Source: Christensenellaceae bacterium (lineage in GTDB: Bacteria > Bacillota > Clostridia > Christensenellales > UBA1431). Taken from it: 64,000 nt of DNA. Shown here piece after piece: positions 28,111-29,187 of the stretch (the first letter of the stretch is position 1; each line of letters starts with the position of its first letter). A program made the translations under genes and the position numbers. The stretch spans positions 1,077-65,076 of the forward strand of contig CAXXMZ010000004.1 of the NCBI GenBank assembly GCA_963675355.2, read 5' to 3'. Under the pieces are notes generated by a model. The model was given only the letters and a program-made list of their open reading frames with translations. It was not told where the DNA came from and made no database searches.

Positions 28111-29187
28111 ATGACGATTAGTTTATTAAACGAATTATTATTAAAAATAATGGAGGTTGGTGCCTCAGACTTACATCTTTCTGTTGGAGCGTTTCCAGCT
28201 GTGCGCAGAAAAGGTGTAATTGAATTTCAAAGAAATCTCCCCAAAATTACGCAAAATGATATAGAAGGTATTATCTCAGCAATTGCACACAAGGAAATGA
28301 AAGAGGAGTTAATTAAGAATAATAACTGTGCTTTTTCTTATGCTATCCCGCATAGAGGCAGATTTAGAGTATGTATCTATAAACAAAGGGGTACGTATTT
28401 CATCACTTTTAGAGTTAGTAATTTTAATACACCAACAAAAGAGGCATTAAGATTACCTGATGAAACTGATAAGTTATTCTCTATAGATTCCGGATTAATA
28501 TTGATAACTGGTACTAAAGGGAGCGGTACTACGTCTACGTCCGCATATATTATTGATAAGTTTAGGAAAGAGAGGAAGTGTCATATTGTTACAATCGAAG
28601 ATCCTATTGAGTATTTATTTAACCACGATAAAAGCATTATCAGTCAAATGGAAGTCGGTATTGATGTTAATAATATGTACACAGGTATCGAGGTCGCATT
28701 AAAGGATAACGCAGATATTATTTATCTAAGTTCAATTATGGATGTTCCAACAATCCGTTTGGCTTTAGAAGCGGCTAGATCTGGTAAAATTGTAGTCACT
28801 ACTATGGATATACCGGGCGTTGTTGAGGTAATAAGAAGCATAATAGATATTTTTCCTTCAGAGAGTGCTAACTATATTAGAGCGCTTTTATCTCAGAGCA
28901 TCAAATGTATTATTTCACAGCAGCTAGTACCTGATATAGAAGGAAACATGATACCAATTTGTGAAGTGCTTTATGGTGTTAAAGCAGTGGCGAATCTAAT
29001 TAGAGAAAACAAGATTGTTCAAATTGATAAAGTACTTGAGACCAGCTTGAAAATCGATATGCTTTCAAAGGACAATCATTTGCTCAAATTATATAGAAGA
29101 GGTTTAATCTCTGAGGAAATATTAAAGGATTTTGCTCAAAATTGGGATGTTTTATCAATGTCTATTGCAAAGATTGACGAGAGGTAA
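28111..29187 (+). CDS. PilT-family (type IV pilus retraction ATPase-like) protein with degenerate catalytic motifs
   Basis: It is collinear with PilT: ASDLHLSVG, RFRV, the Asp box IVTIEDPIEY, and ISQQL. Walker A reads GTKGSGTTS (28510-28536), Walker B reads DIIYLSSIMD (28714-28743), and the His box reads GKIVVTTMDI (28783-28812). Confidence 0.8.
   Translation: MTISLLNELLLKIMEVGASDLHLSVGAFPAVRRKGVIEFQRNLPKITQNDIEGIISAIAHKEMKEELIKNNNCAFSYAIPHRGRFRVCIYKQRGTYFITFRVSNFNTPTKEALRLPDETDKLFSIDSGLILITGTKGSGTTSTSAYIIDKFRKERKCHIVTIEDPIEYLFNHDKSIISQMEVGIDVNNMYTGIEVALKDNADIIYLSSIMDVPTIRLALEAARSGKIVVTTMDIPGVVEVIRSIIDIFPSESANYIRALLSQSIKCIISQQLVPDIEGNMIPICEVLYGVKAVANLIRENKIVQIDKVLETSLKIDMLSKDNHLLKLYRRGLISEEILKDFAQNWDVLSMSIAKIDER

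Follow-up and report, generated by a model that had tools for sequence, protein, structure and literature searches.

A PilT-derived protein, remodelled at the nucleotide site and probably unable to hydrolyse ATP, encoded in a TasA-like fibre operon of Christensenellaceae

In the loci of TasA from Bacillus (tapA-sipW-tasA), BsaA from Clostridium perfringens (sipW-bsaABC), the archaeal bundling pili (ABP) and the haloarchaeal Tat-fimbriae (Tafi; TafA-G), TasA/camelysin-like subunits with signal peptides are encoded with a dedicated SipW/endoplasmic reticulum (ER)-type signal peptidase and a DUF5305 (TafG) accessory protein. Fibres of the TasA-like, ABP and Tafi types have been described as assembling outside the cell with only the signal peptidase and an accessory protein, a role in which DUF5305 (TafG) is regarded, and no ATPase or PilT is mentioned in that literature (PMC11821415, PMC12337348, bioRxiv 10.64898/2026.01.04.697558). 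Here, we analysed a window of 64,000 nucleotides (the whole stretch of DNA under study) from a Christensenellaceae bacterium (GenBank assembly GCA_963675355.2, contig CAXXMZ010000004.1, positions 1,077 to 65,076), in which a gene on the forward (+) strand (28111..29187) encodes a PilT-family paralogue with a remodelled and probably non-hydrolysing nucleotide site, as judged from TIGR01420, PDB structures, an AlphaFold model, conservation across its clade and the ratio of non-synonymous to synonymous substitution (dN/dS). The surrounding operon shares the subunits, peptidase and accessory protein of these fibre loci and differs from them by carrying the PilT-derived gene between the subunit and peptidase genes, and by an extra eight-helix membrane domain on the peptidase. 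Our preferred explanation, which we consider probable, is that the protein is a dedicated cytoplasmic accessory subunit, regulatory or scaffolding, of a TasA/ABP/Tafi-type matrix-fibre export module.

Nucleotide-binding P-loop proteins that hydrolyse poorly or not at all are known as scaffolds or regulators of other filament machines, namely TadZ/CpaE in Tad pili and ArlH/FlaH in the archaellum, but these belong to unrelated families (ParA/MinD-type and KaiC/RecA-type, respectively) and act beside an active PilT-class motor. Within the PilT family, a PilT inactivated in Walker A/B still supports PilU-driven retraction as a structural platform (PMC6762196), which is similar to the present case in that a PilT ring without catalysis can serve a structural or adaptor role; however, that protein is an engineered mutant working in a type IV pilus machine with an active partner ATPase, whereas the losses described here arose naturally, have become fixed and occur in an operon that encodes no partner ATPase. 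The nearest published case for a fibre system is the partial dependence of BsaA/BsaC secretion in C. perfringens on unlinked type IV pilus genes (PMC11580942), a connection that is looser and different. Literature searches found no description of a PilT-like gene in such fibre loci, and the recruitment of a naturally inactivated PilT to a fibre system that depends on Sec/SipW is new with respect to the literature searched. The TasA-like/SipW/DUF5305 context, which was decisive in the present analysis, was absent from an earlier, sequence-only reading of this DNA.

Fold and nucleotide site of the PilT-like protein

The open reading frame (ORF) at 28111-29187 (+) is uninterrupted, encodes 358 aa from an ATG start, and is preceded by a GGGGGAA ribosome-binding site 5-10 nt upstream. 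It starts 74 nt after the upstream gene and ends 2 nt before the peptidase gene, in agreement with the sequence-only reading, which had described an intact ORF inside an operon. The protein covers positions 2-338 of 343 of the PilT/PilU model TIGR01420 at 285.3 bits, a score below the curated cut-off of 319.1, and its residue 6 aligns to position 2 of the model, so that no N-terminal extension is present. Moreover, Aquifex PilT (PDB 2gsz) aligns along the whole protein (E = 2e-67), and an AlphaFold model built on 100 aligned sequences (mean predicted local distance difference test, pLDDT, 94.4) gave Foldseek TM-scores of 0.87-0.92 to PilT4, PilT2, PilT and PilU. The previously proposed collinearity with PilT along the whole length was thus borne out, and the two-domain PilT fold is intact in the model.

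Motif replacements were read from a residue-by-residue alignment to 2gsz. The Walker A motif is degenerate (GTKGSGTTST at 28510..28539, + strand; PilT GPTGSGKST), the canonical Lys at position 140 being Thr, while a new Lys stands at P-loop position 3 (K136). The atypical Walker B motif reads DIIYLSSIMD (28714..28743, +; PilT DVIFVGEMRD), with Gly replaced by Ser, the catalytic Glu by Ser and Arg by Met, and the His box reads GKIVVTTMDI (28783..28812, +; PilT GHLVFGTLHT), with Lys in place of the first His and Asp in place of the second. These motifs correspond to residues 134-142 (28510-28536), 202-211 (28714-28743) and 225-234 (28783-28812), exactly where the sequence-only reading had placed them. 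The canonical R180, E223 and R243 are missing as well.

Other parts of the PilT sequence were conserved. The Asp box IVTIEDPIEY (28585..28614, +; PilT ITIEDPIEY) retains E163, equivalent to the Glu that coordinates Mg in PilT/PilB-type ATPases, and the R86-R101 stretch (28366..28413, +) retains both arginine fingers (roles from PMC5424180), with the same spacing of 15 residues as R271/R286 of PilB-Gm. E167 and the Walker A Thr (T141) are also present, as are the stretches ASDLHLS, GRFRV and ISQQL, so that the motifs named as kept in the sequence-only reading (ASDLHLS, RFRV, the Asp box and ISQQL) were all recovered in the alignment to 2gsz. In addition, NLIRENK (28993..29013, +), the core of the PilT signature AIRNLIRE (named in PMC6762196), is kept here and conserved in the clade described below. 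The claim that every signature of ATP hydrolysis had been replaced consequently holds for Walker A, Walker B and the His box, but not for E163, E167, T141, R86 and R101. With these replacements, the residues needed for hydrolysis (P-loop Lys, catalytic Glu, the His that sense the gamma-phosphate and the EMRD Arg) are gone, and those that hold Mg and phosphate (Asp-box Glu, Walker A Thr and both arginine fingers) remain.

Compared with the PilT/PilU ATPases of type IVa pili (TIGR01420; PDB 2gsz, 3jvv, 6ojx, 9n32), the window protein has a full-length fold at a TM-score of ~0.9, ~35-38% identity, the Asp box, the arginine fingers and the NLIRENK signature, and lacks the Walker A Lys, the catalytic Glu, both His and ~15 further invariants. 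Furthermore, in the flanks examined the genes of its clade never adjoin pilus genes and sit instead in a TasA-like fibre operon. The protein is of the PilT lineage by fold and descent, but it is not a PilT retraction ATPase in the defining sense, because its family score, Walker A, catalytic Glu, His box and gene context all depart from that class.

A clade of relatives sharing the losses

A protein search recovered a tight group of 52-100% identity (P0001-P0022, where P numbers are protein clusters and P0001 is the window protein; L numbers below are related or control loci), followed by a gap and then by ordinary PilTs at ~38%. Exact-sequence look-ups returned no record for P0001 or for P0161, a Rossellomorea peptidase. 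The clade comprises ~23 protein clusters, and the relatives of the window protein, 52-69% identical to it, carry the same class of losses. For a residue census, 198 single-domain PilT-family proteins were aligned, 23 of them in the clade and 175 outside. The Walker A Lys (position 140) was found in 169/175 proteins outside the clade and in 1/23 within it, and the catalytic Glu, absent from the window protein, in 165/175 and 7/23, respectively; the Walker B Gly (157/175), the EMRD Arg (162/175) and the first (155/175) and second (159/175) His of the His box were each present in 0/23 clade members. Catalytic residues are kept in 89-97% of the 175 non-clade PilTs, and the joint loss of Lys, Glu and both His is, on this alignment, rare among single-domain PilT-family proteins.

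The remaining features of the pocket followed a different pattern. E163, E167, R84 and R86 were present in 23/23 clade members, and R101 was kept in 82%. About 20 canonical invariants are replaced in the clade (e.g., D74A, R180M, D200N, R210M, E223R, T224S, R243N and G316N), and most of the replacing residues are themselves conserved (e.g., R223, M180 and S207); altogether, 28 clade-specific residues reach a conservation of 90% or more, among them R114, F123, Y146, R152, R223, R242, Y255, Y288, H323 and W345. With the Asp-box Glu and arginine fingers retained and about 28 clade-specific residues newly fixed, the conservation pattern denotes a nucleotide pocket that is re-specified rather than eroded or merely relaxed.

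A decaying pseudogene, or a one-off degenerate allele of pilT, would have a single point in its favour, the loss of catalytic motifs in the window copy. This explanation is refuted, because the same losses recur across the 52-69% identical clade, pairwise dN/dS of the clade genes is 0.03-0.10 (unsaturated pairs only), and no other product of the operon is as well conserved as the PilT-like protein (58-65% identity; the peptidase reaches 50-56%, DUF5305 41-50% and the subunits 33-50%). ORFs are also intact in the window and in every related locus read. The sequence-only reading, which had favoured a retained pseudo-enzyme over a decaying gene and had proposed an alignment of orthologues as a check, is upheld in this respect, given that relatives carry the same losses (Lys 1/23, both His 0/23).

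The clade was monophyletic in 100/100 neighbour-joining bootstraps with motif columns masked, and is sister to a group of other degenerate PilT paralogues (P0029 and P0207, 99/100; P0023, 54/100). Three subclades could be distinguished: subclade A, which includes the window protein (Walker A GxKGSGTTST, Walker B LSSxMD); subclade B (Walker A GTKNSGVTTT, Walker B LSEMID with the Glu kept, Asp box IENPIEY); and subclade C (Walker A GPIGSG[KR]...), in which Lys and Glu both persist in P0019. None of the three has the His box, the Walker B Gly or the EMRD Arg, and these losses therefore appear ancestral to the clade; the P-loop Lys was probably lost later, through different substitutions (T, V, R). 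Consequently, the earlier prediction of a catalytically dead protein agrees with the motif losses of the window protein, itself an argument from motifs, but does not extend in full to a family in which P0019 keeps Lys and Glu and another sub-lineage keeps Glu.

These distributions also bear on whether the protein is still an ATPase with a deviant P-loop (GxKGSG), in which the Lys at position 3 replaces the canonical Lys, and whether the protein powers extraction or extrusion of fibre subunits. A relocated catalytic Lys has a parallel in the WNK kinases. Lys136 is found in 18/23 clade members and in 4/175 other proteins, and it covaries with loss of the canonical Lys: in subclade C, where K136 is lacking, the canonical residue is Lys (in P0019) or Arg. 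Of the ATP site, the Asp-box Glu, Walker A Thr and arginine fingers persist, subclade B still has the catalytic Glu, and the GxK.SG[VT]TT pattern apparently arose independently in a GspE-like protein (L074). However, the window protein lacks not only the canonical Lys but also the catalytic Glu, both His, the EMRD Arg, R180, E223 and R243, and mutations in these motifs abolish the activity of PilT-like ATPases (PMC5424180; PMC6762196). In addition, an ATPase is required neither by related fibre clusters nor by the TasA, Tafi and ABP systems that have been studied, and we regard a surviving motor activity as distinctly unlikely.

The L074 protein (3443-5098, 551 aa) adjoins a canonical pilT and consists of an N-terminal membrane segment and a GspE/PilB-like domain with the P-loop GPKKSGVTTT; this pattern (Lys at position 3, Val at the canonical Lys) resembles that of subclade B and has apparently arisen independently. 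A regular-expression flag had marked L074 as holding a degenerate PilT, but the motif belongs to the neighbouring GspE-like gene and the L074 PilT is canonical. Tandem PilT-PilT fusions (716-1024 aa), ranked just below the clade in the profile search, were likewise rejected as close relatives, their scores being sums over two mostly canonical domains. Partly degenerate PilT paralogues were encoded at L014 2849-3916 (P0023; GPSKSGRTTT/FISKLDN) and at L015 8001-9041 (P0028, from an Acetivibrionales metagenome-assembled genome, MAG; GNKNSGKSTT/MISSVRD); both genes are solitary, with neither pilus nor fibre genes close by, and an IS605-type transposase lies beside one of the two. Degenerate PilT paralogues seem recurrent in Clostridia.

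The fibre operon and its gene order in related loci

In the window, the operon opens on the + strand with a TasA/camelysin-like secreted subunit of 207 aa (26656..27279; PF12389 Peptidase_M73, 27.4 bits, cut-off 22.5), whose signal peptide ends ...GGAYA|VW and whose homologues occupy the same position in 10 related loci. An intrinsic-terminator hairpin follows (27301..27326, +; 11 bp stem with 6 GC pairs and a T run, from a terminator scan and reading of the sequence), which probably attenuates read-through into the remainder of the operon. The second TasA-like secreted subunit (27427..28036, +) was recognised by tblastn matches in 9 related loci. The ATG that opens its signal peptide (27427) does not share a frame with the main part of the ORF, which is listed from TTG 27482, owing to a run of nine A at 27433-27441; when one A is removed from the run, the start reads MKKKKRGRWIIVIITIVLLLSGVAYAQW..., a proper Lys-rich signal peptide. 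Homologues in seven loci are intact, with signal peptides MNKAKLVVL...GVAYARW. Either the homopolymer was misread in sequencing, or the gene undergoes phase variation by strand slippage, or the frameshift is genuine.

Downstream of the PilT-like gene, a ~250-aa polytopic membrane domain of eight helices is fused to a SipW/ER-type signal peptidase I (29190..30368, +; TIGR02228, 91.4 bits, cut-off 51.85). An alignment of homologues shows S289, H327, R328 and D346 of the peptidase to be conserved, and in a model of the fusion protein (pLDDT 82) the C-terminal domain matched the human signal peptidase subunit SEC11A/C by Foldseek. The N-terminal domain (257 aa, 29190-29960) matched no Pfam family at E <= 10 and no fold in the PDB by Foldseek, and is an uncharacterised membrane domain joined to SipW-type peptidases; its residues E121, R124 and P214 are invariant across 46 homologues. 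The operon continues with a DUF5305 protein, a TafG-like accessory of the signal peptidase (30368..31459, +; PF17231, 76.9 bits, cut-off 29), whose gene start overlaps the peptidase gene stop by 1 nt. With signal-peptide-bearing subunits, a SipW-type peptidase and DUF5305, the predicted gene content matches the features of TasA, archaeal bundling pilus and Tat-fimbria loci.

The same order (2-4 TasA-like subunits, PilT-like protein, fusion of the membrane domain to SipW, DUF5305) was found in L001-L013 and L034, which comprise metagenome contigs (L001-L004 and L034) and GTDB genomes (L005-L013) labelled mostly as "Christensenellaceae bacterium" or Clostridia. In the ~35% identical sister lineage P0207 (L019), the PilT-like gene is again followed directly by the membrane-domain SipW fusion and DUF5305. 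The PilT-like and peptidase genes are tightly coupled, by a 2-nt gap in the window and by an overlap or a 5-nt gap in other loci. A metagenome scan with the sister-group alignment used patterns that were too general and gave mostly ordinary PilT loci, which served as controls, plus one clade member, L034; of the 80 PilT loci fetched, this alone has fibre-operon neighbours and the other 79 have none. Moreover, no type IV pilus gene (T2SSE, T2SSF or a second PilT-like gene) was found within 6-8 kb at 15 loci or in the 64-kb window, the search having covered flanks rather than whole genomes.

More distant homologues of the membrane-domain SipW fusion, at 29-35% identity (L016, L017, L018 and L020), lie in clusters with TasA-like and DUF5305 genes that have no PilT-like gene, and the latter is therefore, on the gene contents compared, a lineage-specific add-on to a module able to work without it. 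A 294-aa gene upstream of the fusion gene in L020 was considered as a further degenerated PilT and rejected, as it encodes a secreted protein and the hhalign comparison gave a probability of 0.3%.

This distribution touches on another possible role, that of a brake on type IV pili, in which a dead PilT made together with matrix genes poisons or competes with the real PilT/PilB of the cell at the pilus base and stops twitching at the commitment to biofilm. The EpsE clutch, encoded in the eps operon of Bacillus, follows the same logic. The retention of NLIRENK (AIRNLIRE), of the N-terminal domain and of a ring-forming fold would suit such a competitor, as would the status of the gene as an accessory add-on absent from related fibre clusters and its co-regulation with a c-di-GMP-controlled matrix operon. 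Nevertheless, its adjacency to the membrane-domain SipW gene is strictly held even in the ~35% identical sister lineage, which indicates a partner within the operon, and the absence of type IV pilus genes from the flanks of those 15 loci also speaks against this role; we consider a pilus brake improbable.

Three copies of the whole cluster (L007, L009 and L010) were present in MAG CAXXPJ01, on three contigs and each near a contig end; their PilT-like genes differ at pairwise dS of 0.05-0.20 with dN/dS of 0.07-0.10, and the copies are either recent paralogous duplications or strain variants. In the window, phage-like genes (~14500-26235; methylase-ParB, terminase, SPP1-type portal, scaffold and capsid) end directly upstream of the fibre operon, the last gene of the region being a large serine recombinase (24625-26235), just past which lies the 3' remnant of a related recombinase gene (26381-26518; ...FDGHIFNALVEKIEVIESTHF...). 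A prophage at that spot was not seen in the related operons of other genomes. At the left end of the window, a 416-aa ORF (1785-3035) matches the RHS repeat (PF05593, E = 1e-14).

Cyclic di-GMP context and the proposed role

The sequence-only reading had noted a diguanylate cyclase about 3.6 kb downstream of the PilT-like gene, and a PAS-GGDEF gene indeed starts at 32820 (32820-33803, +), encoding an intact GGDEF motif and an RxxD I-site. It follows a CheY-like receiver (31847-32221, +) and a CheC/CheX-like phosphatase (32224-32820, +), all three being assigned by Pfam/NCBIfam. A gap of 388 nt separates this group (31847..33803) from the fibre operon, and the terminator scan found no + strand terminator in the gap. 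We treat it as a putative neighbouring module of cyclic di-GMP (c-di-GMP) signalling, without assigning it to the fibre operon transcript.

A more direct link was found in the related loci. The first TasA-like gene is immediately preceded by a c-di-GMP-I riboswitch (RF01051) in L002 (5547-5636), L006 (4252-4341), L008 (5505-5594), L009 (4039-4128), L010 (4048-4137) and L013 (4022-4111), the six operon-leader aptamers scoring 64-68 bits against a gathering score of 35. When aligned, these leaders shared a conserved promoter 5' of the aptamer and a terminator hairpin and ribosome-binding site 3' of it; minimum free energy folding of the L002 leader gave z = -1.1. In L019, a further c-di-GMP-I riboswitch (7634-7719, minus strand; 72.6 bits) lies ~230 nt from the PilT-like gene, on the opposite strand and pointing away. 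It is antisense to a helix-turn-helix regulator gene (6634-7464), no minus-strand ORF follows it, and it may drive a riboswitch-controlled antisense transcript. The window's own operon leader contained no c-di-GMP riboswitch at E <= 1, the weak small-RNA matches there corresponding to the terminator hairpin, and no RF01051 match reached the gathering score in L001, L005 or the scanned PilT-less clusters L016, L018 and L020. GGDEF genes were present in the flanks of 6/9 full-length related loci and of the window, compared with 3/27 control PilT loci (>=10 kb), and a PilZ glycosyltransferase is encoded in L001. Because of the riboswitches upstream and the GGDEF/PilZ genes nearby, the operon is probably part of a c-di-GMP-controlled programme, but the PilT-like protein is not thereby identified as a receptor.

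The idea of a receptor, raised as speculation in the sequence-only reading, thus gains support at the level of the operon only. In such a scheme, a ring with a remodelled pocket would bind c-di-GMP or another nucleotide messenger and gate the extracellular signal peptidase through the SipW-fused eight-helix domain and DUF5305. Comparable inside-out control is known from LapD/LapG, and degenerate enzymes such as PelD serve as receptors. The riboswitches upstream of six operons, and the one ~230 nt from the L019 gene, are consistent with this role, together with the GGDEF and PilZ genes near the operon, which also adjoin it in the window subclade, where the riboswitch is missing. The invariant Arg and aromatic residues gained around the former ATP site (R114, Y146, R152, R223, R242 and Y255) would also fit it. 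MshE and some PilB proteins, which bind c-di-GMP through MshEN, are comparable as members of the secretion-ATPase superfamily in c-di-GMP-regulated surface-structure loci. However, these known receptors remain active ATPases, and in the window protein, which has no N-terminal extension, neither an MshEN/T2SSE_N nor a PilZ domain was matched by Pfam or NCBIfam at E <= 0.01, nor was a recognised c-di-GMP binding motif identified. The enrichment of GGDEF genes is weak evidence, as Clostridia commonly carry such genes and the loci under comparison share close descent, and since riboswitch control suffices to account for the c-di-GMP association, no protein receptor is needed. We therefore judge a receptor role to be unlikely. 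If it were true, the timing of TasA-like subunit release and polymerisation would be set from inside the cell, and this would represent a previously unknown inside-out control of matrix fibres that depend on Sec, as well as a novel outcome in the evolution of a secretion motor.

The explanation that we favour is that of a PilT-derived accessory subunit dedicated to the fibre module. In this mechanism, the protein would still form a PilT-like ring and would bind a nucleotide or another anionic ligand without turnover, acting not as a motor but as a partner of the membrane complex of peptidase and DUF5305, to which it would bind from the cytoplasmic side. Docking could take place at the alpha/beta domain of DUF5305, which has been reported to be cytoplasmic (bioRxiv 10.64898/2026.01.04.697558), or at the Lys/Arg-rich loops of the peptidase membrane domain. 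Once docked, the protein may serve as a switch or scaffold through which the state of the cytoplasm is linked with the cleavage of signal peptides and, by way of it, with the release and polymerisation of fibre subunits, with the whole operon forming part of a c-di-GMP-controlled biofilm programme.

Several points weigh against this proposal. That the protein no longer hydrolyses ATP, forms a ring, binds a ligand and docks on the complex is inferred rather than observed. In the model, the membrane domain of the peptidase exposes very little surface to the cytoplasm and shows no obvious docking site, and with P0019 keeping Lys and Glu and subclade B keeping Glu, some residual activity is conceivable in parts of the family. 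Finally, the family is known only from metagenome assemblies of uncultured Clostridia type, and the fibre is deduced from genes alone.

In brief, the label "twitching motility protein PilT" that proteins of this clade carry in their source records is probably a wrong functional annotation. The riboswitches place the operon in the c-di-GMP-controlled biofilm formation of poorly studied anaerobic Clostridia, whose related assemblies are labelled Christensenellaceae. For a fibre pathway otherwise described as needing only a peptidase and an accessory protein, a conserved PilT-derived protein encoded between the subunit and peptidase genes suggests that in some bacteria the pathway is controlled or organised from the cytoplasm, and the protein itself would be a clean natural case of a secretion motor turned pseudo-enzyme.

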